Positions 24,665 to 49,465 of a DNA stretch of 64,000 nt are shown piece after piece. The notes under the pieces are model-generated. The model saw nothing but the letters and a program-made list of their open reading frames with translations. It made no database searches and had not been told where the DNA came from. Source of the stretch: Bryobacterales bacterium (GTDB taxonomy: Bacteria > Acidobacteriota > Terriglobia > Bryobacterales > UBA6623); NCBI GenBank assembly GCA_963422375.2, contig OY729428.2, positions 1,056,001 through 1,120,000 on the forward strand, given 5' to 3'. The stretch's first letter is position 1, and every line of letters starts with the position of its first letter. The translations under genes and the position numbers were made by a program.

Positions 24665-25096
24665 GTGGGAAGACTGGGCGAGCGGAGACGGTCGCACCTG
24701 CTGGTCGCGGCAGGGGCGCTGGCGCTTGCGGGCGCGGCGGCCGCGCAGGTTCCCAAGTTCAAGCCGGTCGCTTCAATCACCCGGCTGATGCAGGTGCTGG
24801 TGATTCCCTCGTCCAGCGCCCTGTTCGACGTGGCCCGGAATCCACCGACCGACGAGCGGGGATGGGACGAGGTCGCACGGCAAGCAGTGCTCCTGGGAGA
24901 GTCCGGCAACCTGCTGCTGATCGGGAACCGGGCCGAAGACTCGGACGTGTGGGCGGCGACCTCGCTGCGACTCGCCGAGGCCGGCGCAAGGGCGCTCAAC
25001 GCGGCGCAGGAGAGGGACGTCGACGCGATCACCGATGTCGGCAACCAAATCATCGAGGCGTGCGAGTCCTGCCACGAGAAGCATTGGATCCGCTAG
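24665..25096 (+). CDS. Exported monoheme c-type cytochrome (class II, c'-like)
   Basis: Signal peptide (ALALAGAAAA-Q), helical body and C-terminal CESCH. Start uncertain. Confidence 0.75.
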   Translation: MGRLGERRRSHLLVAAGALALAGAAAAQVPKFKPVASITRLMQVLVIPSSSALFDVARNPPTDERGWDEVARQAVLLGESGNLLLIGNRAEDSDVWAATSLRLAEAGARALNAAQERDVDAITDVGNQIIEACESCHEKHWIR

Positions 25097-32758: not shown

Positions 32759-34228
32759 ATGGAAGGTGTCGCGAACTATATTGGCGGACGGTGGGAAGCC
32801 GCCACCGGTTCGGATGTCACGCCCGTAATCGATCCGTCGACCAACGAAACGATCGCGTCGGTTCCGCATGACGGCCGCGACGGTGTCGCGAAGGCGGTGG
32901 CCGCGGCGTTCAAGGCCTTCCCTGCCTGGCGGGCCGTGCCGCCGGGAAACCGGATCCAGTTCCTATTCCGGTTCAAGCAGCTCCTAGAGGAGGACTTCGA
33001 GGGCATCGCGCGCACGATCTCGCTCGAGAACGGCAAGACCTACAGCGAGTCGGCCGGCGAACTCCGCCGCGGGATCGAGAACGTCGAGGTGGCCTGCGGC
33101 ATCCCGACCATGATGCAGGGCTACAACCTCGAGGACATCGCGCGCGGTATCGACGAGACGATGGTCCGGCAGCCGCTCGGCGTGGTCGGGATCATCACCC
33201 CCTTCAACTTCCCGGTGATGATTCCCCTGTGGTTCATCCCGTACGCGATAGCCTGCGGCAACACGGTGGTCGTCAAGCCGTCGGAAAAGGTGCCCCTGTC
33301 GATTCGGAAGGTAGTCGAAGTCTTGGAAAGGACCGGCCTGCCGGAGGGCGTCGTAAATCTCGCCAACGGCGGGCCGGCGGCGTCGGAGGCGCTCGTCGAG
33401 CATTCCGACGTGCGGGCCATCAGCTTCGTGGGATCGACTCCGGTCGCCAGGCAGATCTACGCGTCGGGGGCACTGCACGGGAAGCGCATGCAATGCCAGG
33501 GGGGCGCCAAGAACCATGTCGTGGTCATGCCCGACGCCGACCTCGAGACGACAACCAAGATTGTCGGGGACAGCGCGTTCGGGTGCGCCGGCCAGCGCTG
33601 CCTGGCGGTGTCGACGGTCGTGACGGTGGGCGAGGCGCACCGGCCGTTTCGCGACGCGATTGTCGAAGCCGCGCGATCGCTGCGCGTGGGCCCGGGCCTG
33701 GGCGACGGCGTCGAAATGGGCCCGGTCATCACCTCGGCCAGCCGGAGCCGCATCGAAGGGGCCATCGCCCGCGGCTCCGCCGACGGGGCCGAGGCGGTGC
33801 TGGACGGCCGCGGCCTCCGCGTCGACGGGAGCGAGAATGGCAACTTCGTGGGCCCGACGGTGCTCGATCGGGTCGATTCCGGGGGATTCATCGGAACCAC
33901 GGAGGTCTTCGGCCCGGTCCTAGGCCTCACGCCGGTCGGGAGCCTCGAGGAGGCGATCAAGGTCATTGCGCGCAGTCCGTTCGGCAATGCCTCGTCGATC
34001 TTTACGGCGAGCGGCGCGGCCGCCCGGAAGTTTCGCAGCGAGGTGCCCACCGGCAACGTCGGGATCAATATCGGCGTGGCCGCGCCGATGGCGTACTTCC
34101 CGTTTAGCGGCTGGAAGAACAGCTTCTTCGGAGTGATGCACGGCCAAGGCCGGGACGCGGTTGAGTTCTACACAGATAAGAAGGTCGTGGTCGAGCGCTG
34201 GCCACAGGAGTGGTCGCGCCGGTTCTAA
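32759..34228 (+). CDS. mmsA: CoA-acylating methylmalonate-semialdehyde dehydrogenase
   Basis: RGIENVEVACG, ITPFNFPVMIPLW, SFVGSTP, GGAKNH, FGCAGQRCLA, EVFGP and FPFSGWKNSFFG. Confidence 0.93.
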   Translation: MEGVANYIGGRWEAATGSDVTPVIDPSTNETIASVPHDGRDGVAKAVAAAFKAFPAWRAVPPGNRIQFLFRFKQLLEEDFEGIARTISLENGKTYSESAGELRRGIENVEVACGIPTMMQGYNLEDIARGIDETMVRQPLGVVGIITPFNFPVMIPLWFIPYAIACGNTVVVKPSEKVPLSIRKVVEVLERTGLPEGVVNLANGGPAASEALVEHSDVRAISFVGSTPVARQIYASGALHGKRMQCQGGAKNHVVVMPDADLETTTKIVGDSAFGCAGQRCLAVSTVVTVGEAHRPFRDAIVEAARSLRVGPGLGDGVEMGPVITSASRSRIEGAIARGSADGAEAVLDGRGLRVDGSENGNFVGPTVLDRVDSGGFIGTTEVFGPVLGLTPVGSLEEAIKVIARSPFGNASSIFTASGAAARKFRSEVPTGNVGINIGVAAPMAYFPFSGWKNSFFGVMHGQGRDAVEFYTDKKVVVERWPQEWSRRF

Positions 34229-34291: not shown

Positions 34292-34795
34292 TCAGGGACG
34301 CATTGCCGAGGGCGGGACCTCCCAGTAGCGTTCGTGGCAGTCGTTGCAGGCGGTGTAGATTTCCCCGCCGGTGTCGAACACCGCCTCCGGATCGTGGTTG
34401 CTGGCCGCCTCGACGGCGAGGGACGCCGCGTCGATCAGCGCGGCCGCACTCTCCATCCACTCGCCGGAATCCTTGGCGCGCCCCTCCAGCATGAGCAGGT
34501 TGCCCGCCTCGGCCACCGTGAGGGCGCTCTGGAGTACCTGCTCCCATTCCTCGTGGCTGCGCGGGCGGATTTCGTTCGTGCCTTCCTTGGTGATGATCGT
34601 TCCGACCGAGTCCCACACGACGTCGGCGTGCGGGTAGATGACGTCGTGCATCAGGTCCTCGACCGAGGCGACCGGCTTGAACGGCGGTGACACCCCTTCG
34701 CCGGACCCGCCGCCTTGGCCGCAGGCGATCGCGAGGGCGAGAACCAAGCCGACGGGCGCCACCGCGACAGGTCTCCAAGGGCGTGCTCCGGGCAT
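34292..34795 (-). CDS. Monoheme c-type cytochrome lipoprotein (class II-like), paralog of 24665-25096
   Basis: Lipobox LAIAC; FKPVAS..LM, EAGNLL and C-terminal CNDCH. Confidence 0.8.
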   Translation of the reverse strand: MPGARPWRPVAVAPVGLVLALAIACGQGGGSGEGVSPPFKPVASVEDLMHDVIYPHADVVWDSVGTIITKEGTNEIRPRSHEEWEQVLQSALTVAEAGNLLMLEGRAKDSGEWMESAAALIDAASLAVEAASNHDPEAVFDTGGEIYTACNDCHERYWEVPPSAMRP

Positions 34796-35001
34796 CGGCA
34801 GTTCCTCCAGCTCACTCGGGCGGTCCGGACACGCACGGGCACCAAGCCCGCGGCCCGCAGCGTACCCGACGTCGCTACACTTTAGCGCGTGGGAGGAGCC
34901 GGCACCGCCCGAGGCAGCGCGAGCGCCTCGCTCTGCTAGAGTCTTGGTTTGCTCCTCGCGTCGGCCCGGGCGGCGGCTGATCGCGGAGGCCGTGCCGCAC
35001 A

Positions 35002-35499
35002 ATGTCTTTGCCGGCTTTCCTCGAGTGGCTCGAGGGCACGGGAGCGAGCGTCGCGATCCGCGAGTCGATTCTGCTGTACCCGATCGTGGAGACCACCCAC
35101 GTCCTCACGCTGTGCCTGTTTCTCGGCATGACCGCCACGTGGGATCTGCGGCTGGTCGGCGTCGCGATGCGCCGGGTGCCCGTTTCCGAAGTCGTGAACC
35201 GGCTGTTCCCATGGGCAATCGCCGGCTTCGCGGTGATGGTCGTCAGCGGCTCGATGCTCTTCCTGTCAAGTCCCGTCCGCGCCTCGCAGAACATCTTTTT
35301 CCAAGTGAAAATGGTGGCAATCGCGCTCGCCGGCCTGAACGCCTTCGTGTTCCACCGGACAGTCTTCCGCTGGGTCTCGCAATGGGACCAAGCCGACAGC
35401 ATCCCGTTCCGGGCCCGCGCCGCCGGATTCTGGTCGCTCGTGCTCTGGAGCGCCGTCGTCGTATGCGGGCGCATGCAGGCCTACAACTGGTTCGACTAG
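35002..35499 (+). CDS. DUF6644-like 4-TM membrane protein
   Basis: VAIRES, IVETTHVL, DLRL, FQVKM and GRMQAY. Confidence 0.8.
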   Translation: MSLPAFLEWLEGTGASVAIRESILLYPIVETTHVLTLCLFLGMTATWDLRLVGVAMRRVPVSEVVNRLFPWAIAGFAVMVVSGSMLFLSSPVRASQNIFFQVKMVAIALAGLNAFVFHRTVFRWVSQWDQADSIPFRARAAGFWSLVLWSAVVVCGRMQAYNWFD

Positions 35500-35511
35500 G
35501 CGCAGCGTCCC

Positions 35512-35988
35512 ATGGATCTGTTTCCGGTATTTCAGTGGCTCGAGGACACCTCGATCGGGGTCGCGATCCGCGAGTCGCTCTGGCTCTTCCCGGTCATAGA
35601 GGCGGTCCACCTCCTAGCCTTGGCGCTGACCGGGGGCACCATCCTGCTGGTGGACCTGCGCCTGCTGGGCTTCGGCTTGCGCAACCAAGCGGTCGCGCTG
35701 CTGGCCGAGAGCGTCCATCCCTGGCTGGTTGGCGGCCTCCTGACGATGGTCGCGACGGGCATCCCGATGTTCCTGTCGGAGGCGATCAAGTGCTACTACA
35801 GCCCGCCGTTCTGGTACAAGATGTTCTTCCTAGTCATCGCGACGGCCTTCACGTTCACCGTCCGCAAGCGGGTTACGGCGGCCGATCAAGCGCGGGTGGG
35901 GCCGGTGTGGGGCCGACTCTCGGCTGTGGCTTCGTTGGGACTCTGGTTCTGCGTTGGCTTCTCGGGGCGCTGGATCGCCTTCTACTAG
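35512..35988 (+). CDS. DUF6644-like 4-TM membrane protein (tandem paralog)
   Basis: VAIRES, VIEAVHLL, DLRL, FWYKM and GRWIAFY. Confidence 0.8.
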   Translation: MDLFPVFQWLEDTSIGVAIRESLWLFPVIEAVHLLALALTGGTILLVDLRLLGFGLRNQAVALLAESVHPWLVGGLLTMVATGIPMFLSEAIKCYYSPPFWYKMFFLVIATAFTFTVRKRVTAADQARVGPVWGRLSAVASLGLWFCVGFSGRWIAFY

Positions 35989-36022
35989 CGCGAGAGCCCG
36001 CGCCCCGCCCCAACGGCGCGAG

Positions 36023-36460
36023 CTAACGTCCCGGCTCCGTCGGGTCCCGCCCGTCGTGCGGGGCGCCCGTCCCGGACGAGCCCATGAACAGCTTGCTCCC
36101 GTCCTCAAACGTGAGGTTGCGCCCGTTCGCCTTCATCGTCCCGTCCTTGGCTTGGTAGCCGTCCACCAGGATCACCGTGCCGGGCAGCAGCGAACTCTTG
36201 GTGAAACCCCTGCGGAACAGGGTGTTGGGCGTGCCTCCCTCGACCATCCAGCGCTCGACGCCGCCATCGTCCTTGGTCACGTCGATGTGGATCCACGCGT
36301 GCGGGTTGATCCATTCCATCTTGGCTACCGCGCCCTTTAGCTGAACGGGGCGCTTCGCGTCGAACTCGGCTGAGAAGGCGTGGTGCCCCGCCAACGGCAG
36401 CGCTAGCAGCAGCACCCCCAGCGCTGCGGCGGCGGAAAGGCAGACTCGTTTGCGTGTCAT
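36023..36460 (-). CDS. DUF6152-like exported protein
   Basis: Signal peptide followed by HHAFSAEFD; EWINPH and EGGTPNTL. Confidence 0.82.
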   Translation of the reverse strand: MTRKRVCLSAAAALGVLLLALPLAGHHAFSAEFDAKRPVQLKGAVAKMEWINPHAWIHIDVTKDDGGVERWMVEGGTPNTLFRRGFTKSSLLPGTVILVDGYQAKDGTMKANGRNLTFEDGSKLFMGSSGTGAPHDGRDPTEPGR

Positions 36461-36496
36461 GCGATCGCTCCCCGGTTGCAGTGTACCCGCACCCAG

Positions 36497-37501
36497 TCAG
36501 GGCAGGTTCGACCCGCTGTGCGGCTGGCCCGCCCGCTCCGCGGCCCTGGCTCCCTCCAGCATCGTGAACATGCTGTAGTTGCCCTCGTGGCAGGCGTATT
36601 CGAACATCGGCTGGTCCGTCTTCTTCATCGGAATCGCCGCCGTCCACGGCCGCTCGAAGGACTCCGGATCCTCGACGGTGTATTCGTAGACGATCCGGTC
36701 GGGGCCGACTCGCGTGAAGCGCTCGACCAAGCGCATGTTCCTGCCCGAGCCGCGGAAGGATGTCTTGCCCGTGAAGTTCGTCGACTCGACGACCAGCGTG
36801 TCGCCTTCCCAGCGGCCGCGGGGATCGCCGCGCCACTGGCGCATCCCCTGCGGGAGGTGCGGACGCCCGTCCAGCGGGACGATGCGAGCGTCGTTGACCA
36901 TCTCGATCAGCAGGACGGCGTAGCCCGGCGTTTGTAAGATATGCACGTTGTTGTTGTATGCGCTGGGACTGTACGGCGGTCCGGCGTTGAATCCCAGCAG
37001 GCAGCGCTCGGCCACGCCGCGATCCTCGGGACCGTGGGGCGGGCGGGCCCTGGCGGCCCGGATCGCGTCGTATCGCTGCCGCGCCGGAGCCGTGAGCGGC
37101 GGGATCCGACCGCCGGGCGGATCGACGATGAGGGAGGTGCGGCCGTCCTCGATCAGCTGCTCGCCGAAGTCCCACCAGAACTGGTTGTAGGCGTTGCGGA
37201 CATCCTGCTCGGCAGAGATCCCGTCGGAGGCGCGCCGGTCCTTGTTACGCCGCCTCAGCTCCTGCACGCGGAACTCCTCGGCTTCGGCGGCGTCGCTGAA
37301 AGTGTCCCGGTCGCCTAGGCTCCTCGGCCTCTCCAAGGGGGTGATCGTGCGAAAGTCCCACACTCCCCGCAGGTCTGGCTTCCCCCACGCTGTGCGGGGC
37401 GCTACCCACTCGTCGTGCTCGCCGCCGGCCGCCTCGGCAGCCTGGAGCGACGCCGCCAGGAAGGCGACCAGACCAACCGCGAGTCCTCGAACCGTCATCA
37501 T
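36497..37501 (-). CDS. Exported hypothetical protein, type B (EYACHEGN family)
   Basis: Signal peptide; WGKPDLRGVWD, RTSLIVDPPGGRIP, ERCLLG, GRWEGDTLVV and FEYACHEGN. Confidence 0.85.
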   Translation of the reverse strand: MMTVRGLAVGLVAFLAASLQAAEAAGGEHDEWVAPRTAWGKPDLRGVWDFRTITPLERPRSLGDRDTFSDAAEAEEFRVQELRRRNKDRRASDGISAEQDVRNAYNQFWWDFGEQLIEDGRTSLIVDPPGGRIPPLTAPARQRYDAIRAARARPPHGPEDRGVAERCLLGFNAGPPYSPSAYNNNVHILQTPGYAVLLIEMVNDARIVPLDGRPHLPQGMRQWRGDPRGRWEGDTLVVESTNFTGKTSFRGSGRNMRLVERFTRVGPDRIVYEYTVEDPESFERPWTAAIPMKKTDQPMFEYACHEGNYSMFTMLEGARAAERAGQPHSGSNLP

Positions 37502-37514
37502 TCCGCCTCCTCCG

Positions 37515-38342
37515 TCATTCGCTGTCCTTTTTGCGCAGGTGCCCGTACATCATCTCTTCGACGAACTCCACGCATTTGAATTCCAGCAGCTGCATGCCCT
37601 CTTCCATTCGCCGGTACAGAGGCATCCGGACCATCCAGGGCCGGGTGAAGACCTTTTCGTCTTCGATGGTGGCCTCGTACAGCAGGTGGTTGGGCCCCGT
37701 GAGGGTGTAGCGCTCGATCACTTTGAGCGAGTCCGAGTGAAAGTTGCCTGAACTGTCGAGCCAGGTGTCGGGCACGTGGTTCGTCACGTCGACCACCAAG
37801 GTCTGCCCGTCCCAGCGCCCGCGAGAGTGACCCATCCACGCGTCGCCCGGATGCTCGAAGTCGGGTCGATTCATGTAAATGACCCGGGAGGCGCTAGCGA
37901 ACTCGTACGCGATCAGGATGTGATCGGGAGTCTGGACGATCTGGAACGGGAAGGGCATGTAGGCGGCACGCGGGACGCCCGGCATGTAGCACTTGACGAC
38001 CGGATCCAGCTTGAGCCAGTCCTTCCGGTTCTGGTTGCGCTTCTCGAGGGCCCAAGGCTGGTAGGGGATCTCGCCGCCGACCACGACACCGAGCCCGCCC
38101 GGAATCGCGCCGAGAGCGCCCATCTCGACCACCGGACCCGATTCGGCCGAGTGGCCTTCCACGTTCCAGTGCGCCGAGCCCAGAGCCTGCCAGATGCCGT
38201 TCAGGTTGGGGTTGCCGTCCGGCGTCAGCGGCGCTTCGTGCTCCTGCGCCAGCCCGGCGGCCGAGAACGCGGCGAGCAGCACGGCGAGGATGGCCGGACA
38301 GCCTCGCACGTCCGTGGCTAGCGCTAGCACCAAGCTTCGCAT
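37515..38342 (-). CDS. Exported hypothetical protein, type A (LNGIWQA / KCYMPG family)
   Basis: Signal peptide; PNLNGIWQA, DPVVKCYMPGVPR, GRWDGQTLVV, SGNFHS and LEFKCVE. Confidence 0.85.
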   Translation of the reverse strand: MRSLVLALATDVRGCPAILAVLLAAFSAAGLAQEHEAPLTPDGNPNLNGIWQALGSAHWNVEGHSAESGPVVEMGALGAIPGGLGVVVGGEIPYQPWALEKRNQNRKDWLKLDPVVKCYMPGVPRAAYMPFPFQIVQTPDHILIAYEFASASRVIYMNRPDFEHPGDAWMGHSRGRWDGQTLVVDVTNHVPDTWLDSSGNFHSDSLKVIERYTLTGPNHLLYEATIEDEKVFTRPWMVRMPLYRRMEEGMQLLEFKCVEFVEEMMYGHLRKKDSE

Positions 38343-39496
38343 CTCGTTCGACTCCAACCAGATTCTACTACTCGCCCCCACCTGCGCGTTCGAATCGGGC
38401 CGGTCGCAATCGCAAGGTCACGCGTGGCGCGGTGCAACTTGCACGTGTCTGACGGCCGAGTCTCCGGCCTCGAGGGGCGCCTCGCCCAAGCAGCCCCCCC
38501 GGTCGACGGTACGGACCACGCCGGTCCCGAGGGAGCGGGGGATCGGCGTCGCGCACAATCGGGACTCACGCGACGCGCGGCCGGAATCGAGAGCCTCCTG
38601 CGCATCCGGGCACCGTGTTCGCGGCTGGCCTATACGTTCGGGTACGTTCGGGCGGAACGCGAATTGCAGATCGACCGGCTGGCTCAATGGGCCTGCGGCG
38701 CCGACCTCGCAACCGAGACATCCTACCTCGCACGGCGGCTATAGCACCAAGGCACGAAATCTCGTTTCGGGCCAAGATCCTTCCCAGAGGTACAATCCGG
38801 CCATGCCTCCCGATTACGGCAATCCATTCGAGGTGAATGGATAGCACACTCCGCGCATGAGAACTTCTCAACGAGCTTCATCAGATGACTTCTGGCAAAA
38901 GAATACTTGCACCATCTGTGGTATCTCTATCTAATCTCTCTCCAAGTCTATCTACTATACGATCCTTCGATCTGTGGACAATTCCGGTTCACTCATTTGC
39001 TTGCCATAGATTCTGATTTAAGGGTTTTTTTGGACTCTCTAACTCCTGTTAAGAAGAGCGAAGTCTTGATTAATTTCTGCTACAATCCCACTCATAATGG
39101 TTGGAAATATCTGTAGATTGTCGTCTGATTACAACTTCTATTGCCTCCTATTGGGAGTCGATGCTGTATTCTGTCATCGCATGAGGGTCCGCATAGAGTA
39201 GCCTGTCAAGGACGCACACATCCGCTGACTGAACCGCGCACCTATCCAAAGAGCGATTCGTTCTCTTGGGTACGTCCCATTGTATTCTCGTCTTGGATCT
39301 GCGTCAATGCTGTAAGTGATGTTTCGTCAAGTAAGTCAATTGAGATCTAGACGGAATTGCGTGGGGGCTTGAATACTCGCCAAGGAATCGAGCTACTCCT
39401 CTTCGATTTATCTCTCTATAGTGCCGTCAAAGACGCCACGAACTACTCCTTCATCGTGGGAAATAGGTGTGGAGATCGCTCTGAATAATGTCACTC

Positions 39497-39856
39497 TCAC
39501 TTGGATGACCATGCCATCATCTTCCTAAGACTTAGACCCGGAATGACTGAAGAACTTGGGAATGGACGCTCAAATCTGATTCCTTGACCTGCCATGTAAA
39601 CCAATGCAGAGCCGTCCGCATCAAAGATTATCACGACAGTACCTCCGTAACTCTTGTTGCCCATTTGAATAGTTACGATTTGATCGTCATTCGGAAGTAT
39701 GATGTCGGGAGAAAGTTTCATTGACCGAGCCAATCTCTCAGACACTTCTCTCGCAGAATTTATTGCTGTCTCTGAGGGTGTCTCGCACTGGTTTGCCAAT
39801 GACTTCTCGACAAGCGTGTCTGCTTCGTGAGGCGATTCAGCAAGCCATTCATTCAT
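39497..39856 (-). pseudogene. AT-rich hypothetical gene, antitoxin-like, probably 5'-eroded
   Basis: ETPSETAINSAREV and VVIIFDADGSALV; upstream sequence has many stops. Confidence 0.45.
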
Positions 39857-40139
39857 TCATATTCGACGGACTTGAATCCGACTCAATTGCTTGGATCCAA
39901 CGGAGATTAATCCAACAATAAGAGTTTGAATTCCGAGACTATTGAAGTGAATAATAATCGAAAAAAGTAATCCGACAGGAGGAGTAGTGTTCCGTTAGCT
40001 GAACGCGACTAAGAGATCTCTTGAGTCGATCTTCATATTGATTTGAAGTCGATATGATTGACTGAGGATAAAAGTGGCTAACCTTGTGACTATTGTGCCA
40101 ACTCAAGCGGGTTTGAAACCATAGCCGATGCAGTGACTG

Positions 40140-40499
40140 TCACGCGACTTCTTCAAGGCTCTGAAGATGATTTCCCGGCCGAGAATAGAGTTGCTTGGCA
40201 GTGTCGAAGTTCATCATCACGTCAACTTCGACTTCTCGGTCGAAGCGGCTGCCTCCCGTACCAATGAACTGCTCCGGTTCCAAGATAATTCCATCGTCCT
40301 TAACACATCGAAATCCATGTTCCTGCAGAGCCGGGCGCTCGGCGTAGAGTGCCATCCGAAAGAGTCCGCGTGGCGTGAATTCCCCTATGGCACCGTCGCA
40401 ATAGACGACTCGGAACGAGCTGCCCCTGAGACAGCGGAATCCAATCCGGTCGACGCGCCCGTCGTCGGCAGCGCCCTTCGGCTGGTCTTGCTGTGCCAT
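40140..40499 (-). CDS. Hypothetical protein, DUF3467-like small beta/alpha protein
   Basis: FRVVYCDGAIGEFTPRG..MALYAERPA and DREVEVDVMMNFDTAKQL. First gene of an AT-rich islet and possibly decaying. Confidence 0.55.
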   Translation of the reverse strand: MAQQDQPKGAADDGRVDRIGFRCLRGSSFRVVYCDGAIGEFTPRGLFRMALYAERPALQEHGFRCVKDDGIILEPEQFIGTGGSRFDREVEVDVMMNFDTAKQLYSRPGNHLQSLEEVA

Positions 40500-40993
40500 G
40501 CCTCGTCACTCCGGTAGCCCATGGAATAGAGCATTTCCCTGATTCAAAGCGACAACGGGGTCAGCCTCGAACACGGGTCCGAGCCTCGCGTCGCCCATCG
40601 CTCGGCACAACACAGGCTGGGCCCTCGCAACTGTGTTACTAGCGTACATGCGATTCACGAGGCACCACCGGTCATAGGTGCCGGCACGCATATCCTGCTA
40701 GCTCTAGCGGACCGCATGTCAGCACGACGACGAGGGCTCAGTTCAATTCATCGGAACAGGGACCGGGCCCCGCCAGGGAAGGACCTCGTTGGACTGGCCG
40801 GCGCTGAACGCACGGATGCCTCACTGGTCCACTTTTCTATGCGGGCCCAGCTCAGGCCCCATCATGCGGCACGGGGCGCGGGAGCCGAGTCCGCACGTAC
40901 GCCGCTTGTCCGGGCGCGCACTCAAGGCAGGCCTCGTGAGTTATCATTCGAGGCGGCGATCGTAGATCAACCGAGGGGCTCGCTCTAGGTATC

Positions 40994-43105
40994 GTGTCGA
41001 ACGAGGTTTATGCCACCCAGAGGCTCCGGCTTCCCTCGCTCGCTCTCACGCTCTCGATTACGGTCGCGCTACCCGCCTCCGGCCAGCAGCTCCCGACGGA
41101 ACCGGCTGCCGCGCTGGTCGACGACAGGCGGATAGCCCGCATAGACGAGGAGGAACCCGGATCATGGCTCTCCTACGGGCGCAGCTACGACCAGCACCGC
41201 TTCTCGCCCCTCACGCAGATCAATCGCGAGACCGTCAAGGGCCTTGGGCTCGAGTGGACACGGAGGATCGAGGTGCGCCATCGCCTGCAGTCCTCCCCCG
41301 TCATCGTGGACGGTGTGATCTACTACACCGACAGCTGGAGCGTCGTGTCGGCGGTCGACGCCGACACCGGCGAGACCATCTGGACGTTCGATCCGAAGAC
41401 GCGCCGCCGATTCGCTCGCTGGTCGTGCTGCGGCGGTCCGATGAACCGAGGCGTGGCCGTCTACAAGGGACGGGTCTACACGGCCACCTTCGACGCCCGG
41501 CTGGTGGCAATCGACGCCGCGACCGGCAGGAAGGTCTGGGACGTGGACACCGCGGACTATCCCTCCCGGATCCCCTACACCATCTCAGGCGCACCTCTCG
41601 CGGCGGCGGGAAAGATCTACATCGGCAACAGCGGTTCCGAATGGGACCACCGCGGGTACGTGACCGCCTACGACGCCGAGACAGGAGCGAAGGCATGGCG
41701 CTTCTTCACCGTGCCCGGCGATCCGTCACTGCCGTTCGAGCATCCCGAGCTCGAGGAGGCCGCCAAGACCTGGAACGGCGAGTGGTGGAAGTTCGGAGGA
41801 GGCGGCACCGTGTGGAACGCCATCACGTACGACCCCGACCTTCACGCCGTCTATATCGGAGTCGGAAACGGCACGCCGTGGTCGCGCGTGATCCGCTCCC
41901 CCGGCGGCGGCGACAACCTGTTCCTGTCCTCGATCATCGCCCTCCACCCCGAGACCGGGCGCATGCAGTGGTACTACCAGACCACGCCGGGAGACAACTG
42001 GGACTACACCGCTACGCAGGACATCGTCCTGGCTGACGCGAATGTGGACGGCGAGAACCGCAAGGTGCTGATGCAGGCACCCAAGAACGGTTTCTTCTAC
42101 GTTCTGGACCGGCGGGACGGCGAGCTTCTGCGGGCGCACGCCTACGGAGCCATGACATGGGCCACGCACGTCGACATGGAGACCGGCCGACCGGTCGAGA
42201 ACCCGGCCGTCGTCTGGGAGGAAGAGCCGCAGTGGATTCTCCCCGGCAACACGGGCGCGCACAACTGGGAACCCATGGCGTACGATTCCGCCAAGGGCCT
42301 GATGTACATCCCGACCCACGACACGCCATTCTTCTTCGCCCTGCCGGAGGACTACCAGAAGACCGGCGCCTACTCGCCTCGCGAACGAACGATGAACCTA
42401 GGCGTGGCTCGGGGCACCTATCGCATGCAGCTGATTCGGAGGGCACCGCAGCCGCCCGAGGCGAAGGGGTTCCTCAAGGCGTTCGACCCGCTGACGGGCG
42501 AGACCGTCTGGAAGGTACGCAACAAGACCGCTCGCATTGGGGGCGTCCTGGCAACAGCCGGAGGGTTGGTCTTCCAAGGCGACGGAAGCGGGAAGTTGTC
42601 TGCCTACGACAACGATGACGGGAGGCTGCTGTGGGAGTTCGACTCGTACGGGTCGATCATCGCTCCTCCGGTCACGTATCAGGTGGGCGCGACTCAGTAC
42701 GTCGCCGTCGTGGCGGGATCCAGCTTCTCGTACTACGACTACGGCAAGCTGCTCGTGTTCACTCTGGGAGGCGACAAGAAGCTCGAGGTCCCGCCCTCGC
42801 GAGAACGCGCCATTCCCGAACAGCCTCCGGTCACGGCGTCGCCCGAGGAACTCGCACGAGGCGACAGGCTCTACCACGAGTTCTGCGCTTCCTGCCACGG
42901 CTACCAGGCCCGTGGCTACCGCAACGCGGACTTGCGCGCGATGAGCGGAGCAGTCCACGGCGCGTTCCAGAAGATCGTTCGCGACGGCCTGCTCCTCGAC
43001 CTCGGCATGGACAGCTTCGGCGACGACCTGGACGAAGAGGAGACCGAACTGGTCCGGCAGTACATCATTGCCCGAGCTAGGCGCGACCGCGACGCGACGC
43101 GATGA
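40994..43105 (+). CDS. Type II quinohemoprotein alcohol dehydrogenase (PQQ domain plus cytochrome c)
   Basis: WLSYGR..RFSPLTQIN, vicinal CC then NRGVA, GGGTVWN, YQTTPGDNWDYTATQ, QAPKNGFFYVLDR and GAHNW; C-terminal CASCH with GM ligand. Confidence 0.93.
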   Translation: MSNEVYATQRLRLPSLALTLSITVALPASGQQLPTEPAAALVDDRRIARIDEEEPGSWLSYGRSYDQHRFSPLTQINRETVKGLGLEWTRRIEVRHRLQSSPVIVDGVIYYTDSWSVVSAVDADTGETIWTFDPKTRRRFARWSCCGGPMNRGVAVYKGRVYTATFDARLVAIDAATGRKVWDVDTADYPSRIPYTISGAPLAAAGKIYIGNSGSEWDHRGYVTAYDAETGAKAWRFFTVPGDPSLPFEHPELEEAAKTWNGEWWKFGGGGTVWNAITYDPDLHAVYIGVGNGTPWSRVIRSPGGGDNLFLSSIIALHPETGRMQWYYQTTPGDNWDYTATQDIVLADANVDGENRKVLMQAPKNGFFYVLDRRDGELLRAHAYGAMTWATHVDMETGRPVENPAVVWEEEPQWILPGNTGAHNWEPMAYDSAKGLMYIPTHDTPFFFALPEDYQKTGAYSPRERTMNLGVARGTYRMQLIRRAPQPPEAKGFLKAFDPLTGETVWKVRNKTARIGGVLATAGGLVFQGDGSGKLSAYDNDDGRLLWEFDSYGSIIAPPVTYQVGATQYVAVVAGSSFSYYDYGKLLVFTLGGDKKLEVPPSRERAIPEQPPVTASPEELARGDRLYHEFCASCHGYQARGYRNADLRAMSGAVHGAFQKIVRDGLLLDLGMDSFGDDLDEEETELVRQYIIARARRDRDATR

Positions 43106-43190
43106 CCCCGCCCCGGGGGTTGCCCGCTTGAACAGTCCCATGTAACCTAGAGTCCGGGAGAAGCCCGATTCGCTGGACTGGAGACCGTGG

Positions 43191-43631
43191 ATGACCCGCG
43201 ACCGCACCAGAGCCTTGCTCGCAGCAGCCGTGCTGGCCTCCGTTCCGGCGGCAGACGCCCACCATGCGTTCTCCGCCGAATTCGACGCGAACCTGCCGAT
43301 TCGAGTCACTGGCAAGGTCGTCAAGGTCGAGTGGATCAACCCGCACGCTTGGGTTCACGTCAAGAGCGACGAGGGCGAAGGGCTGGTCTGGGAACTCGAG
43401 GCGGGCACGCCGAACACCCTGCTGCGACGGGGCCTCACCCGGACCCTGCTACTGCCCGGAACGCCCGTGACGGTGCGCGGCTACCAGAGCAAGGACCGAG
43501 CCTGCGATCCCAGCTGCAAGGGCAGCGGGCGCGACATCACGTTCGCGGACGGCCGCAAGCTGTTCATGGGGTCCTCCGGAACGGGCGCGCCCCGCGACGG
43601 GGCTGACCCCACGGAGCAGAGGCTCCCCTGA
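43191..43631 (+). CDS. DUF6152-like exported protein (second copy)
   Basis: ADA-HHAFSAEFD, EWINPH, AGTPNTL, an extra CDPSC loop, and KLFMGSSGTGAP shared with 36023-36460. Confidence 0.82.
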   Translation: MTRDRTRALLAAAVLASVPAADAHHAFSAEFDANLPIRVTGKVVKVEWINPHAWVHVKSDEGEGLVWELEAGTPNTLLRRGLTRTLLLPGTPVTVRGYQSKDRACDPSCKGSGRDITFADGRKLFMGSSGTGAPRDGADPTEQRLP

Positions 43632-43805
43632 TAGGTTCCCTTCTGCGGCGCGCGGTTCCCAGCTCTGCTGATCGCACGACGCATTGACGCGCCTAGCACG
43701 GCGGCACCATGTCACGAGGCCGTGTTCGGACATTGGTGCGCGGTCGTCAAATCGCAGCGACTCGATACGGTCTCGTGTTTCTTCGACTACAAGGACCAGC
43801 GGGTG

Positions 43806-43980
43806 CTACTTCTTCTTATCGAAGTTCGAGCGAAGCCATTCCAGTGCATTGCGCCGCTCGGAAACGGTTGCGCGCCTGATCTGAGTTAGGAGCCAAGTCC
43901 AAGACGGTGGCTCCTAGACAATGTTCTTGGCCCCTTGGTTACAGGTACCGCACAGGGCTCGCAACTTCGATAATGCGTTC
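43806..43980 (-). pseudogene. C-terminal remnant of an HNH endonuclease
   Basis: LSKLRALCGTCNQGAKNIV*EPPSWTWLLTQIRRA...ALEWLRSNF, with in-frame TAG at 43914-43916. Confidence 0.7.
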
Positions 43981-44695
43981 CAATAGGGTCGGTTGGCTCT
44001 CACCGTAGCACATGCATGAGGATCATTGTCTACAAGTAGGCATGCCAAGAAGCCGACTGATCATTTCACTTGGTGATCCAATCCCATTGATTCGGTCCTC
44101 TCGAAGAGACCTCAATATTCTCGCTAGATTGCCTGTCTAGGCGCGACACATTCAGCGGAGTCAAGTCTGCGCGGCCGATCAACCAGCCTCCCAGAAACGC
44201 TCGGTCTCGTGGTCGAGGAGCGCTAGGGGCATGTACAGGAGTACTGGACGGCAGCAGTCCTTGTAGGCCAGCAATAGGCCCGATCACAGTACGGGGGCGG
44301 CTCGCGAGGCCGTGCCGCCCCAGCCGCACGCCGCTCTCTCGCATGTGTGAAGCGTAGCTCTACTAGCGTCCTGTCACCGCGGAAACGACCACCAACAAAC
44401 CTCGGCGTTCTTGAAGGCCTGTCGCGCACATTGGACATTCCCTGGGATCTCCTCGCCGCGAGCTTTCCGGCGGTGCGACTCGGGCTGCTGGTTCCGCTAA
44501 TTCCCGCAAGCGGTCACACCCGGGACGCCGGTTGCCGGCCACCGACACCGAGCAAGAAGCGGACCGGCGATTCAACGCGCGAGACCTGCAGGCACGACGT
44601 CACGCTCGTGGCGGGGCCGCCGACTCTACACGGGCTCCCTCGAGTCGACCATGAATCGCGACGGCTTTGCCCGTGCGAAGCCGCCCCTTCCCTGA

Positions 44696-45772
44696 TCACT
44701 TCCCTTCGGCCGCAGTCGCCTCCTTGCCGAGCCGCTCTTCCGCGGCCTTGACCGCCTTCGACCCGCCGTACCAAGTGGCCAGCCAGTCGTCGCTGGTCTT
44801 GCCTTCCCGCTCCTGCGCTCTCGCTCCCGAGAGCATCAGGAACATCGAGCGGTTCCCCTCGTGGCACGCGTACTCGAGCAGGGGATCGGAAGTCTTCTTC
44901 ATCTCCACCGCGACGGACCACGGCCTCTCGAACGACTCGGGGTCGTCCACGGTGTACTCGTAGAGCAGGACGCCCTCGGAGGTCCGCGTGAAGCGCTCGG
45001 TCAGCAGCATGCCCGGACCCGAGCCGCGGAAGTTCGTGTGCTCCGTGAAGTTTCTCGTCGTCACCACCAAGGCGCCGCCTTCCCAGCGGCCTCGGGAATC
45101 GCCCTTCCAGAGCCGCACGCTATCCGGCACATGCGACCTCCCGTCGAGCGGGATGATGCGGTGATCATTGATCATCTCGTTCAGGATCGCCACGTGGTCC
45201 GGCGTCTGGAAGATCTCCACGAAGTTGTTGTAAGCGCCGGGATTCATCGGCGGCCCCGAATTGAAGCCCATGATGCAGCGCTCGAGCGGGTTGCGGTCCT
45301 CGGGCCCGGACGGAACGCCGCCCCAGCGGGCGTAGCGCTCGGCCGAGCGGCGCTTCGCCAGCTCCGTCTGCGCGGGCACGCGCCCGTCCGGCGGATCCAC
45401 GACCAACGATGTCCGCAGGGTCCCGGTCATCTTCTCGCCACGGTCCAGCCAGAACGCGTTGTAGCCTACGTCCACGTCGCCCTGGCCTTGGACCGGGTCC
45501 CGGTTCCGGCGCTCCGCGCGAGCCTTGCGCGTCCGCTCCTCCCACTCCGCGACTTCCGCCGCCGTCAGGAACTCCTTGTCGCCGAATTCCGCGGGGCGCT
45601 CGAACGGCGTGATGGACCGGAAATCCCACGTGCCCCGCAGGTCCGGCGCTCCCCAGCTCGTCGTAGGGATCTCCCCTGCCGCGGCGACGGACGTCAGCCC
45701 TGCCGCAACCAAAGCGACGGGCAGCGCGGTAAGCGCCGCCGACACCAACCGGCTCTCCCGGGCTGCTCGCAT
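44696..45772 (-). CDS. Exported hypothetical protein, type B (paralog of 36497-37501)
   Basis: WGAPDLRGTWD, RTSLVVDPPDGRVP, ERCIMG and LEYACHEGN. Confidence 0.85.
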   Translation of the reverse strand: MRAARESRLVSAALTALPVALVAAGLTSVAAAGEIPTTSWGAPDLRGTWDFRSITPFERPAEFGDKEFLTAAEVAEWEERTRKARAERRNRDPVQGQGDVDVGYNAFWLDRGEKMTGTLRTSLVVDPPDGRVPAQTELAKRRSAERYARWGGVPSGPEDRNPLERCIMGFNSGPPMNPGAYNNFVEIFQTPDHVAILNEMINDHRIIPLDGRSHVPDSVRLWKGDSRGRWEGGALVVTTRNFTEHTNFRGSGPGMLLTERFTRTSEGVLLYEYTVDDPESFERPWSVAVEMKKTSDPLLEYACHEGNRSMFLMLSGARAQEREGKTSDDWLATWYGGSKAVKAAEERLGKEATAAEGK

Positions 45773-45791
45773 GGCGATGCCTCTTCCCTTT

Positions 45792-46625
45792 CTACTTCCC
45801 CGCATCGCCGCCCGATTGCAAGCCTTCCGCAGGCTCGACACCCCGGCGGAGATGGCCGTAAACCGCCCCTTCCGCGAAAGGCACGCACTTGAACTCGAGG
45901 ATCTGGGCGTTCGGCTCCAGACGCCGGTACAGCGGCATGCTCATCTTCCAAGGGCGGGTGAAGACCTTTCGATCGTCGACGGTGACCTCGTAGCGCAGCG
46001 CGTTCGGCCCGGTCGGCGTGTAGCGTTCCTCGACCCGGAGCTCCTCGCTATGGAAGTTGCCCGAACTGTCGAACCAAGTGTCAGCGACCTGCGCGGTTAC
46101 GTCGACCACCAGCGTCTCGCCCTCCCAGCGACCCAGCGAGTAGCCCATCCACGACAGGGCGAGCGCCTCCGACCCGGGCCGATCCATGCGCACGACGCGA
46201 CTCGAGCTGGCGAACTCGTAGGCGAACAGGATCGACTCGGGCGTCTGGACGATCTGGAACGGGAACGGCATGTAGGTGGCTCGCGGTATGCCCGGCATGT
46301 AGCACTTCACCGCCGGATCCAGCTCGAGCCAGCTCGCCCGATTCTCGGCGCGCTTTCGCAGCGCCCAGTCCTGATAGGGGATCGCGCCGCTTTCGACCAC
46401 GCCCAGCCCGGCCGGAATCGCTCCCAGCGCTCCCAGCGCTTCGACGGGCCCGGGCCGGGCGGCGTGGGCCTCGAGATCCCAGTGCGCCGAACCCAGCGCC
46501 TGCCAGATGCCGTTCAGGTCCGGGATCCCGTCGGTCGTGCGCGTGGCGGCATACTGCCCACGCGCAGGTCCTGCCGCTCCCGCGACGATCATCAAGGCGA
46601 TTGCCAGCGCGGTTGCGTGCTTCAT
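45792..46625 (-). CDS. Exported hypothetical protein, type A (paralog of 37515-38342)
   Basis: PDLNGIWQA, DPAVKCYMPGIPR, SGNFHS and LEFKCV. Confidence 0.85.
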   Translation of the reverse strand: MKHATALAIALMIVAGAAGPARGQYAATRTTDGIPDLNGIWQALGSAHWDLEAHAARPGPVEALGALGAIPAGLGVVESGAIPYQDWALRKRAENRASWLELDPAVKCYMPGIPRATYMPFPFQIVQTPESILFAYEFASSSRVVRMDRPGSEALALSWMGYSLGRWEGETLVVDVTAQVADTWFDSSGNFHSEELRVEERYTPTGPNALRYEVTVDDRKVFTRPWKMSMPLYRRLEPNAQILEFKCVPFAEGAVYGHLRRGVEPAEGLQSGGDAGK

Positions 46626-46762: not shown

Positions 46763-49465
46763 TCAGAACGCCAGGCGCAGCATCAGGTTGAAGGTGCGCC
46801 CGTCGTTGAGGGTGTTGGTGATCTGGCCGAAGTTGGCGCCGGAAAGTTCGTTGCCGGGATAGGCGAACTGGGGCGTATTCAAGAAGTTGATGGACTCGGC
46901 GCGGAACGTCAGCGTGCTCTCGCTCGCGATCTTCCAGCTCCTCGACACGGAAAGGTTGATGTTTTGAATCCCGTCCTTGCGGAAGACGTTGCGACCTAGA
47001 TTCCCCGAAGGGCGGTCTGCCGGGACGAAGTCGAAGGCCGAGCGGGGCAGGAGCTCGCGCGACGTGTCGGGATGGCTGATGCTGCGTCCCAGGATCGAAG
47101 GATCCAGAAGCTGCGGACGATCGCCCATGACACCGTCGACGTTGCCGAATCCCGGCGCGTCGGAACCCGCGTACATGACGAACGGGGTGCCGCTCTTGAG
47201 CAGGGCCACCGAGTAGAGCTCCCAGCCGCCGAGGGCCTTGTTCCAAGCGGCGCCGGCCGAGCGGAGGGAAGGCGTGCGGTAAGTGGCCCGCGCGAGGACG
47301 GCGTGGGGCTGGTCGAAGTCGCTGAGGGACTTGACGTCCCCGTGCACTTCGAACTCGGTCTGGCTGCGCCCGGCGAACGCGTCGCGGACCGAGGCGTTGC
47401 TGGCGTAATGGGCTCCGAGATCGATCGCCTTGCTCAGCCAGTAGGAAAGGTCCAGCGTCAGGCCCTTCTTGTCCCGGACGCCCAGCGTGGCCTTGGCCGC
47501 GTCGAAGTAGGCCCGGGAGCCGTTGAGGATCCGGCGGACGTCGAAGTACCGCTGGTCCGGCCGGCGCTCGTTGACCGTCCGGGTGGTCCGCGGAATGCCG
47601 TCGACCTCGCGCGCCCGGTTCAGCACCCAGCCCGACAGCAGGCGATGCGAGCGGCTGCCGACGTAGCCGACCTGCGAGAACAGTCCCCCGGCAGTCGCCG
47701 CCTCCCAGCTGAAGTTGTACTGGTGCGAGTACGGAGCGACCAAATCCGGAGCGATCCGAATGATCGTCGTGCGGGCGTTCGGGTCCGCGACATCGACTAG
47801 GAAGCCGGCCAGAGGATCCAGCAAGTCCGGGGCGACGACGTTGAGGCGAATGTTGCCCGGGGGGTTGAAGCGCTCCTGCGTGTAGGTGGCCGTGAAGATC
47901 TCCCCGTACTGCAGGCCGTAGACCCCGCGCAGGACTCCGGCCGACGTCCTGTAGGCGAATCCGAAGGCCGGCGCGACGTTGTTGCAGTCGCAGCGGTAGG
48001 GCAGCGTCGACAGGCCGTTCACCTCGAGCGGTCTCGTCGTCGGCTCGAACCGGATGCCGAAGCTGAGGGTCAAGTCGCGACGGGCCCTCCACGTGTCCCC
48101 CGCGAAGTACTGCATGCGCCAGCGCCTGAAGCCCCTGCGCGGGGTCCCGATCGATTTCGAGATCCGGCTGGGCGTCCCCAGGCGCAGATTCGTGATCATG
48201 GCGCGACCGAAGTTCGCGCTGAACAGGATGAGGCCGGCATGACCGGAGCTCTCGATGCCGTTGAGCTGCTCCCGCGTCACCGCAAAGCCCGCGCTGAGGC
48301 GGTGGGCGCCCCTCGTCGTCGAGGCCAAGCCCGCGTAGCGGTAGAAGTTCTGGACGCGGTCGTAGGGGATGCTGGAGGTTCCGCCGATCGATTGCAGCTG
48401 GCGGCCCATCCAGATGACCGGGCCGAAGGCCGTCTCGTCCTGGACGATCAGAGAGGTCATGCGCCGGAAACCGGCGGAGAGCTGGCCGGTCGTCGCCGGC
48501 GACCAGTCGCGGGTCCATGTCAGTCGGCCGTCGTGGGAGCCGGTCGTGGTGTTGGGATTCTGGCCCTTGATGAGCTGGAACGCGTCAACCCGCTGCTTGC
48601 GGAACCTGTAGTCGGTCGCGACGCGGTCGCGGTCGCCGAGCGGCAGGTCGAACCGGCCGCCCGCCACGTCGTTGTCGATCTCCTGCGGGGCATTGGTGTT
48701 GTGCGCCCTAGGGTTGATGTCGGGCCGATTGGGCGCCTCCGCCGGGAAGGAATCCAGGATGCGGGACACGACCGCTCGCAGGGCCGGGTCGGTCGCCAGG
48801 GGAGTCCGCTCCTCCGGCCGCGGAATCAGCACGTTGCCGTTCACGTTGCCCCGGTTGCGCTGCTGGGACAGGTCGACGGTGAGAGCGGACTCCGCGAACA
48901 GGGGCAGCAGGAGATTCGCGCCGAAGTCGTTCGAGCGGGCCGGCTGCACGGCCCCGACTTGGAAGAACGAGCGCGCGGAAAGCGCGCTGTTGCCGTGGCT
49001 CTCGTAGAGCGACCCGTGCAAGCCCCGGGCGGAGGCCCGCTTGAGATGGATCTGCCGCATGGGCGGGTTACCGAACTCGCTGCCGAAGTAGCCCTGCGAG
49101 GGGGCGAACTCCCGCACGACCGTCGCGCTGGTGCCCATGCGGATGTTGATTTCCTTCTGGACGTTGTTGTCGACCAGCGTGAGCTGCACGTTCTCGTTCC
49201 GCCGGCTCTCCCCGGAGTCGGCGTCGACCTCCCCGAGCAGGTTCAGCTCGGTGCGGTCGGCCGCCGCCCAGCCGGCATCCTCGCCGGTCCCGGCCACCGC
49301 CTCGTCCGCGGCGACGGAAGGCTCGGAGGGCGCGGCGTCCTCGCTGGAGGCCGAGCGCCCGGAAGCTGCCTGGCCCGCGGCGGCGAGCCCGGCAACTAGG
49401 GCGAACGCGAGGGCCAGCCGGAAGGTCCGGCCGCCGGGCCTGGCGGTGCCGAGGTCGAGAAACAT
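46763..49465 (-). CDS. Oar-like TonB-dependent receptor beta-barrel protein with short atypical N-terminus
   Basis: YFAGDTWR..LTLSFGIRFE, NNVAPAFGFA, GNLGRN, RAESINFLNTPQF and C-terminal MLRLAF. Confidence 0.85.
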   Translation of the reverse strand: MFLDLGTARPGGRTFRLALAFALVAGLAAAGQAASGRSASSEDAAPSEPSVAADEAVAGTGEDAGWAAADRTELNLLGEVDADSGESRRNENVQLTLVDNNVQKEINIRMGTSATVVREFAPSQGYFGSEFGNPPMRQIHLKRASARGLHGSLYESHGNSALSARSFFQVGAVQPARSNDFGANLLLPLFAESALTVDLSQQRNRGNVNGNVLIPRPEERTPLATDPALRAVVSRILDSFPAEAPNRPDINPRAHNTNAPQEIDNDVAGGRFDLPLGDRDRVATDYRFRKQRVDAFQLIKGQNPNTTTGSHDGRLTWTRDWSPATTGQLSAGFRRMTSLIVQDETAFGPVIWMGRQLQSIGGTSSIPYDRVQNFYRYAGLASTTRGAHRLSAGFAVTREQLNGIESSGHAGLILFSANFGRAMITNLRLGTPSRISKSIGTPRRGFRRWRMQYFAGDTWRARRDLTLSFGIRFEPTTRPLEVNGLSTLPYRCDCNNVAPAFGFAYRTSAGVLRGVYGLQYGEIFTATYTQERFNPPGNIRLNVVAPDLLDPLAGFLVDVADPNARTTIIRIAPDLVAPYSHQYNFSWEAATAGGLFSQVGYVGSRSHRLLSGWVLNRAREVDGIPRTTRTVNERRPDQRYFDVRRILNGSRAYFDAAKATLGVRDKKGLTLDLSYWLSKAIDLGAHYASNASVRDAFAGRSQTEFEVHGDVKSLSDFDQPHAVLARATYRTPSLRSAGAAWNKALGGWELYSVALLKSGTPFVMYAGSDAPGFGNVDGVMGDRPQLLDPSILGRSISHPDTSRELLPRSAFDFVPADRPSGNLGRNVFRKDGIQNINLSVSRSWKIASESTLTFRAESINFLNTPQFAYPGNELSGANFGQITNTLNDGRTFNLMLRLAF

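Follow-up and report, generated by a model that had tools for sequence, protein, structure and literature searches.

Within about 12 kb of a 64,000-nucleotide stretch of a Bryobacterales genome (contig OY729428.2, positions 1,056,001 to 1,120,000; hereafter the window) lie ten genes for envelope-type proteins: a cytochrome c (C), two DUF6644 membrane proteins (M1 and M2), two DUF6152 proteins (H1 and H2), two pairs of exported barrel proteins (A1/B1 and A2/B2) and a quinohemoprotein dehydrogenase (Q). Do these genes form one system, and what could such a system do? A sequence-only reading had proposed a single envelope system with metal- and heme-type ligands. We confirm all ten open reading frames (ORFs), as well as the double occurrence of the A-B pair and of the His-His protein H, and find a conserved set, present in 28 of 301 genomes, for which we could locate no description.

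We tentatively read this set as metallo-oxidoreductases, each built from H and a barrel, that C would connect to a membrane heterodimer of HemJ/CopD type, M1/M2, and give this interpretation slightly less than an even chance. Redox enzymes on a shared wire are favored because H-barrel units are many and C and M few, the H site resembles a His brace, a barrel is present, the cytochrome is obligatory and the neighboring genes are catabolic. Observed adjacency, fusion, co-occurrence, conservation of ligand-type residues, copy-number asymmetry and a heme c motif underlie this reading, together with two predicted folds, an oligonucleotide/oligosaccharide-binding (OB) fold for H and a calycin barrel for A/B. 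H and the barrels would form periplasmic metallo-oxidoreductase units, with a metal, likely copper, bound to His1, His2, His29 and Glu49 of the H OB domain should these four residues meet, and with a small organic substrate held in the barrel. C and M1/M2 would act as a shared wire presumably carrying electrons to the membrane, with heme b possibly bound between the two His33 of M1 and M2. The many diverged H-barrel units could each handle a different substrate while sharing a single C and a single M pair, and pyrroloquinoline quinone (PQQ) dehydrogenases such as Q might donate electrons to this cytochrome or oxidise the products.

Co-occurrence, copy number and physical linkage

Phylogenetic profiling, proposed along with the sequence-only reading, supports the grouping of H, barrels, C and M. 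We surveyed 301 genomes of the phylum and 91 of one proteobacterial order. The phylum counts are 31 genomes for H, 35 for M (30 of them over cut-off), 30 for barrels and 29 for C; all four families occur together in 28, and any of them in 37. The 28 core genomes belong to 7 families and are patchy within them (1/23, 3/9, 5/9). C is present in all 28 genomes that have H and a barrel and missing from three that have only H and M; G144, G198 and G287 carry H with a single adjacent M and neither barrel nor C. Among the 91 proteobacterial genomes, H occurs in 9 and M in 7, all within those 9, and in the two H-positive genomes left a profile detects an M-like gene beside H. C, searched in 13 of the 91, is found in 10 and missing from three with H and a single M; barrels were searched in part of the 91. 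The full set of C, M, M, barrel and H lies on a plasmid of the cultured Novosphingobium humi KACC 19094. Sphingobium TomTYG65 (L210:7095-20363) has barrel-H-barrel-H and an M pair amid monooxygenase, taurine dioxygenase and sulfonate uptake genes, with no C in the stretch read.

Per genome, many H-barrel units stand against few C and M. G363 holds 22 H with one M match and one C, G044 holds 16 H, 6 M and 3 C, and the source genome 4 H, 9 intact barrels, 2 M and 4 C-family cytochromes, two of these being weaker paralogs outside the window. Barrel subunits are more variable than H (47 and 57% vs 68%). Such numbers bear on a rival explanation, which we consider rather unlikely, in which the genes serve metal acquisition: H would capture metal like CopC, M1/M2 would import it like CopD, outer-membrane receptors would deliver metal-chelate ligands for the barrels to bind, and C would reduce the metal to release it. 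Having 16-22 diverged H copies per genome is hard to explain for one metal ion, and C is obligatory with barrels, yet minimal H+M pairs, present in 7 genomes, are best explained by import.

Physical linkage is tightest between H and the barrels. Of 79 loci around H, 77 yield H itself and 77 a barrel, against 18 for M, 23 for C and 23 for PQQ-type genes; a barrel gene lies directly beside H in 72/77. Ten of the 27 H ORFs fetched, all in G363, are clean signal-H-barrel fusions sharing 21-65% mutual identity (median 26%). They keep His1, His2 and Pro-His in 10/10, Glu in 9/10 and both Cys in 10/10, and their barrel half matches A and B with a probability of 99.8. A and B are better described as partners of H, adjacent or fused, than as the separate "client metalloproteins" first envisaged. 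Twenty-seven long H proteins considered as fusions proved mostly read-through products with inner signal peptides and were left uncounted. G363 is a 1.9-Mb proteobacterial genome (L211-L226) whose 22 DUF6152 matches include a His-less copy fused to YceI and several copies with C-terminal extensions of no assigned family. In a further protein (P0161; 1 of 270 matches examined), which has two members located on different contigs, a C domain (probability 99.4) is followed directly by an A barrel. Fusions therefore tie H, barrels and C together, and M is tied to them by adjacency and co-occurrence only. Over 34 operons, correlations between the distance matrices of H, A and B lie at 0.66-0.74, with 0.25-0.46 as the highest values after shuffling; shared ancestry can also produce such a correlation.

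The neighborhood speaks against metal acquisition in that no P1B-ATPase, HMA or multicopper-oxidase motif appears in 1,370 neighboring ORFs of 122 loci, and no copper-homeostasis Pfam family among 129 of 175 neighbor-cluster representatives, the Pfam set comprising these 129 and 36 recurring or fused proteins. Metal acquisition draws some support from HupE/UreJ beside the M pair or C in 2 loci (L161:2012-3264, L043:13869), from PepSY-TM-like genes, below cut-off, in 6 loci and from receptor genes in some. Neighbors are mostly small-molecule enzymes (esterases, hydrolases, SnoaL, NHL, glyoxalase, P450, cytochromes, one Rieske and one HupE/UreJ), and A barrels are also found fused to glyoxalase-fold or metallo-lactamase domains. 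Distant single M relatives stand beside Rieske proteins and a His-rich membrane protein in 3 loci (L067, L070, L072).

Predicted folds and ligand-type residues

The N-terminal His-His and Asn-Pro-His of H had been singled out as potential ligands, and their conservation agrees with this: His1, His2, Pro28, His29, Trp46 and Gly69 are invariant in 78 DUF6152 sequences, and Glu49 is kept in >90%. His1 is very likely the first residue of the mature chain after the predicted cleavage, because Ala, Gly or Ser precedes His-His in 96/96 DUF6152 sequences. A mature N-terminal His with a second conserved His, as predicted here, is the His-brace pattern, which PMC8424229 describes in enzymes (lytic polysaccharide monooxygenases, LPMOs) and non-enzymes (CopC, PmoF). 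The structure model of H (predicted local distance difference test, pLDDT, 84.7) resembles OB folds (Z 9.3, root-mean-square deviation 3.0, 86 residues aligned); CopC with its cupredoxin-like beta-sandwich, CusF and CcmE are absent among the fold matches listed, which is not an exclusion. H1 and H2 yield no Pfam CopC match at E up to 0.1, and H nothing significant in a PDB sequence search.

A and B had been taken for separate families of an exported pair. The exported pair stands, and the alignment, with 30% identity and both Cys invariant, makes A and B two subfamilies of one family, to which a Pfam search assigns none of the four proteins. Conservation of the paired Cys thus holds, but the two probably form a single disulfide and do not look like metal ligands. 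Across 133 diverse A-type representatives, conservation is 98-100% for the two Cys, at least 95% for several Arg, Glu and Gln, and 92% for the proposed ligand His of ACHE; this His is missing from four sphingomonad barrels and from the ten H-barrel fusions, both groups keeping only the Cys pair. The FHS motif of B was rejected as a ligand, its His being present in 17/23 aligned B proteins. The A1 model (83 sequences, pLDDT 84.6) resembles calycin barrels of the FABP/CRBP, nitrobindin and nanoKAZ types (Foldseek best E 7.5e-4), with VIA scores of Z 8.7 for nanoKAZ and 8.3 for CRBP-IV over 110-120 residues, in a listed range of 8.7-6.7 that is middling. Some 110-130 of its 302 residues align with calycins, at 8-16% identity, around a 135-residue insertion, and the GxW motif, an N-terminal calycin hallmark, is present in the family. 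A1 finds nothing significant in the PDB sequence search and matches only unnamed clusters in the ESM Atlas. In one side case (P0153) a barrel is fused behind a squalene-hopene-cyclase-like domain with CxxCH.

The nearest folds of the barrel, lipid- and retinoid-binding proteins, also suit non-catalytic binders or sensors, in which the barrels would bind varied molecules, the H metal would be a structural pocket closer and C/M would relay a signal. Large paralog expansions are likewise typical of binding proteins. Set against this, the genes next to the core include no recurring transporter or sensor family, M is short-looped with no signaling domain, and a dedicated cytochrome is kept, which leaves binders or sensors very unlikely in our view.

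C has the features of a class II cytochrome c: a C-terminal CxxCH, a helical sequence and likeness to cytochrome c', by a Pfam match below cut-off (21.2 of 26.5 bits) and a match to structure 1cpr (E 1.6e-5). CxxCH, proposed as its redox ligand, is present in 37/37 family members, with a helix-1 Met motif in 34/37 and a lipobox-like sequence in 21/37; C itself carries a lipoprotein-type signal. Met38 is invariant in 20/20, and this helix-1 Met may be the sixth ligand (His/Met ligation), by analogy to c556.

The transmembrane His predicted as a ligand in DUF6644 is equally constant. M1 keeps H33, R50, K103, R157 and Y161 in 36/36 sequences, with a second His, H118, in 30/36; M2 keeps H33, D48, R50, K103 and R153 in 36/36. 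H33, K103 and a C-terminal Arg are thus common to every M1 and M2 sequence. In hhalign comparisons M matches CopD with a probability of 40 and HemJ with 33, with His and Lys in register; it is the helix-1 His and helix-3 Lys of HemJ that M matches, and HemJ binds heme b. Among 35 M proteins, 18 match DUF2214 and 3 UPF0093 at E up to 1, and none passes the cut-off of HemJ PF03653 (3 weak, best E 0.0008) or CopD PF05425 (3 weak, best E 0.0078). PF05425 likewise has no match over cut-off in the source genome. M finds nothing significant in the PDB sequence search, and M2 no usable match in the ESM Atlas. The M chains are 165 and 158 aa long, versus ~300 residues and 8 helices in CopD, a size that the pair, or the 343-aa chains in which L060 and L062 naturally fuse two M, could mimic.

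In favor of metal acquisition, a His-first H lies beside a CopD-related membrane protein, and the CopD model weakly matches two DUF6644 genes (E 6e-5, 9e-4). The second CopD His is the one with which His33 aligns, and by its spacing this corresponds to YebZ H154; YebZ needs two His, H135 and H154, and H154 is essential for import, according to PMC11923076. M matches only the second of these two and lacks the CopD 'GHA' His. The sequence-only reading had offered two architectures, CopC plus CopD and an electron chain from the PQQ enzyme via cytochrome c to a membrane heme protein. The first finds only loose support: the N-terminal His of H agrees, whereas the missing CopC match, the predicted OB fold, the presence of one of two CopD His and the absence of copper-homeostasis genes among the neighbors examined do not. 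For the second, the cytochrome part holds and the PQQ enzyme as a core member does not. The electron chain fits better, because C is obligatory wherever barrels occur.

The dehydrogenase Q and the layout of the locus

Q is a type II quinohemoprotein alcohol dehydrogenase with a PQQ propeller, a vicinal Cys pair and a C-terminal heme c motif; it passes TIGR03075 (550 vs 480 bits) and matches structure 1kv9 (E 1e-194). A lanthanide type is ruled out by WDYT, a motif that marks non-lanthanide quinoproteins. Q lies 85 bp upstream of H2, and this Q-H2 arrangement is conserved in 8/12 genus relatives. Glucose-dehydrogenase-like quinoproteins occur in 73/301 phylum genomes, in 28/28 core genomes vs 45/273 others, and about 16 quinoproteins are found in the source genome. 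First-look candidate counts of barrels and dehydrogenases correlate across the 28 genomes (rho 0.61, a rough proxy).

These figures lend some support to the explanation that the system is an accessory of PQQ dehydrogenases, C and M1/M2 taking the quinoprotein's electrons as XoxG does, and H-barrel carrying PQQ or substrate or activating the enzyme in the manner of XoxJ/MxaJ. The pqqC model has no match in the source genome and passes its cut-off in 8/56 other genomes, only 2 of them among 30 H-positive genomes, so PQQ would have to be scavenged, in line with the PQQ scavenging reported in PMC12124388. On the other side, 45 of the 73 dehydrogenase-bearing genomes lack the full module, only 17/122 loci have a PQQ gene immediately beside a core gene, and no PQQ gene is annotated in three sphingomonad loci. 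His-rich sites are, moreover, ill-suited to loading Ca or a lanthanide. We regard the accessory role as distinctly unlikely. Because direct adjacency is uncommon, Q is a genus-level add-on and not a core member. In five loci of one genus, C, M1, M2 and two quinoprotein genes share one orientation. L054-L059 show this order, with one of the quinoproteins ~45% identical to Q and no H or barrel in the stretch. A pqqD-like gene beside H in L050 was dismissed as a PQQ link, being part of an unrelated cluster.

Table 1. Features of the locus, in window coordinates
Feature	Position	Strand	Remarks
C, class II (c'/c556-like) cytochrome c	34292..34795	-	lipobox-like AIA|C, helix-1 Met, C-terminal CxxCH
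M1, DUF6644 membrane protein	35002..35499	+	Pfam
M2, DUF6644 membrane protein	35512..35988	+	Pfam
H1, DUF6152	36023..36460	-	signal peptide then His1-His2, N-P-His29, Glu49; predicted OB fold
A1, exported A-type barrel-family protein	36497..37501	-	RC...EYACHEGN; predicted calycin-like barrel, long insertion
B1, exported B-type barrel-family protein	37515..38342	-	KC...FKCVEF
Low-GC spacer, outside the system	38850..40520		two no-family ORFs, 39497-39856 and 40140-40499, minus strand
Q, type II quinohemoprotein alcohol dehydrogenase	40994..43105	+	vicinal Cys145-146, WDYT, CASCH; accessory
H2, second DUF6152	43191..43631	+	His-His start, extra Cys pair
Spacer of ~1.06 kb	43640..44690		absent from relatives
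A2, second A-type barrel protein	44696..45772	-	53% to A1
B2, second B-type barrel protein	45792..46625	-	66% to B1
Outer-membrane beta-barrel (TonB-receptor-like)	46763..49465	-	upstream of B2
Second C-family cytochrome	24665..25096	+	soluble-type signal, 9 kb away
Aldehyde dehydrogenase	32759-34228	+	adjoins C

Pfam assigns DUF6644 twice (32.7 and 85 bits) and DUF6152 twice (106.8 and 91 bits) in this locus (Table 1). The closest named relatives of the window are Bryobacterales, and a proteobacterial donor of the second cassette was set aside, A2 and B2 being nearest to Bryobacterales copies and H2 showing no clear affinity. Genus relatives lack the low-GC spacers, which measure ~2.2 kb in the B1-Q gap and ~1.06 kb in the H2-A2 gap, and the ORFs of the first match no Pfam or NCBIfam family. 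B1 and Q are 2,651 bp apart here vs 265-536 bp in five of 12 genus relatives fetched, and H2 and A2 1,064 bp vs 0-1 bp in eight of the 12; low-GC inserts come to 3.7 kb in all. The Q-H2/A2-B2 cassette is whole in 7/12 and adjoins B1-A1-H1 in four of those 7. Three of four public DNA runs cover all 30 bins, with listed long pieces letter-identical, low-GC stretches included; as these runs may include the source sample, they check the assembly only. A single putative RNA run gives read depth in 6/30 bins, and a promoter/terminator scan of the locus yields a signal at chance level.

The TonB-receptor-like gene is retained in several genus relatives, its link to the system being unproven. The aldehyde dehydrogenase gene lies next to C in most genus relatives and was set aside as genus-level synteny only; a methylmalonate-semialdehyde dehydrogenase gene also lies near the Novosphingobium humi copy. 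The source genome has two further B-A-H loci (G000:C2:553201-555749, L031, and 762059-768054, L032), the latter with A fused to glyoxalase-fold domains and a quinoprotein after H, and an A-type barrel gene that is frameshifted and in pieces (L033, G000:C1:1535454-1536713).

Weighing of the mechanism and its meaning

Several points weigh against H-barrel oxidoreductases wired to M1/M2. Which metal is bound, whether M carries heme, whether the unit is catalytic and which way electrons run are all things that we infer, as is the four-residue site, because no distances are readable from the models. The calycin match scores are middling (best Z 8.7), most calycins are binders and not enzymes, and M resembles CopD no less than HemJ. 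PQQ genes seldom adjoin the core, as noted above, the C profile was built from core-genome loci, and related genomes are not independent. The minimal H+M pairs, which in the second lineage include G343, G391, G394 and G409 with H, a single M and no barrel or C, fit a metal hand-over between H and M. Among His-brace proteins, CopC and PmoF have no known catalysis (PMC8424229). A more specific possibility, doubtful at present, is a new and very large family of periplasmic His-brace copper oxygenases, in which a copper-binding OB-fold domain would cap the calycin pocket and be reduced through C and a heme-b-bearing M1/M2 or by PQQ dehydrogenases.

Known systems resemble the set in parts. CopC/CopD (YobA-YebZ-YebY in E. 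coli, YcnI-YcnJ in B. subtilis) likewise places an exported protein with an N-terminal His beside a membrane protein with periplasm-side His, and the M and CopD profiles are weakly similar. The differences are that H gives no match to CopC and is predicted as an OB fold, that the set also includes barrels and a cytochrome, that copper-homeostasis context is lacking, and that M consists of two short subunits, each with the one His common to both, vs an 8-helix chain with two distinct His. The four-helix HemJ (UPF0093)/DUF2214 proteins align with M at the helix-1 His and the Lys at the start of helix 3, whereas M is a heterodimer with periplasmic partners and no link to heme synthesis genes was seen. 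His-brace LPMOs fed by cytochrome-bearing dehydrogenases share the N-terminal His with a second His, and a cytochrome and a PQQ dehydrogenase are nearby here; they differ in fold, in having a flat surface instead of a barrel pocket and in lacking a membrane component. Calycins (FABP/CRBP, nitrobindin, nanoKAZ) share the barrel topology, but not the 135-residue insertion of A1, the two invariant Cys, the export and the partnership with H. XoxF-XoxG-XoxJ and MxaFJGI clusters combine a quinoprotein, a dedicated cytochrome c and exported helpers, while here the cytochrome is of class II, the helper folds are unrelated and the quinoprotein is not a fixed member.

Fold relatives of the parts are known, and the combination matches no known system that we could find. 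As the sequence-only reading had stated, our literature search found no characterised system of this composition. Nor did we find a paper naming DUF6152 or DUF6644, or one on an N-terminal-His OB-fold copper protein, in the searched literature, which did not cover subscription journals. What is added here is a presence table that counts C as well, the finding that genomes without barrels lack C, the standing of Q as an accessory, a neighborhood negative for copper homeostasis, and carriers in culture.

Either leading outcome would be new: a calycin pocket combined with an OB fold that carries a His-brace-type site, or a heterodimer of CopD/HemJ type working with a cytochrome. The cultured Novosphingobium humi KACC 19094 plasmid is a testable carrier, and single-chain H-barrel fusions are expression targets. 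If the oxygenase possibility were true, PQQ dehydrogenases would oxidise the hydroxylated products, and Acidobacteriota and Proteobacteria would use the system to attack diverse small organic molecules. The barrel family, with 23,440 clusters at 50% identity by its profile, has no Pfam entry, and single genomes carry 16-22 or more H units. Whatever its function, abundant bacteria, most of them uncultured, invest heavily in this unstudied periplasmic family.

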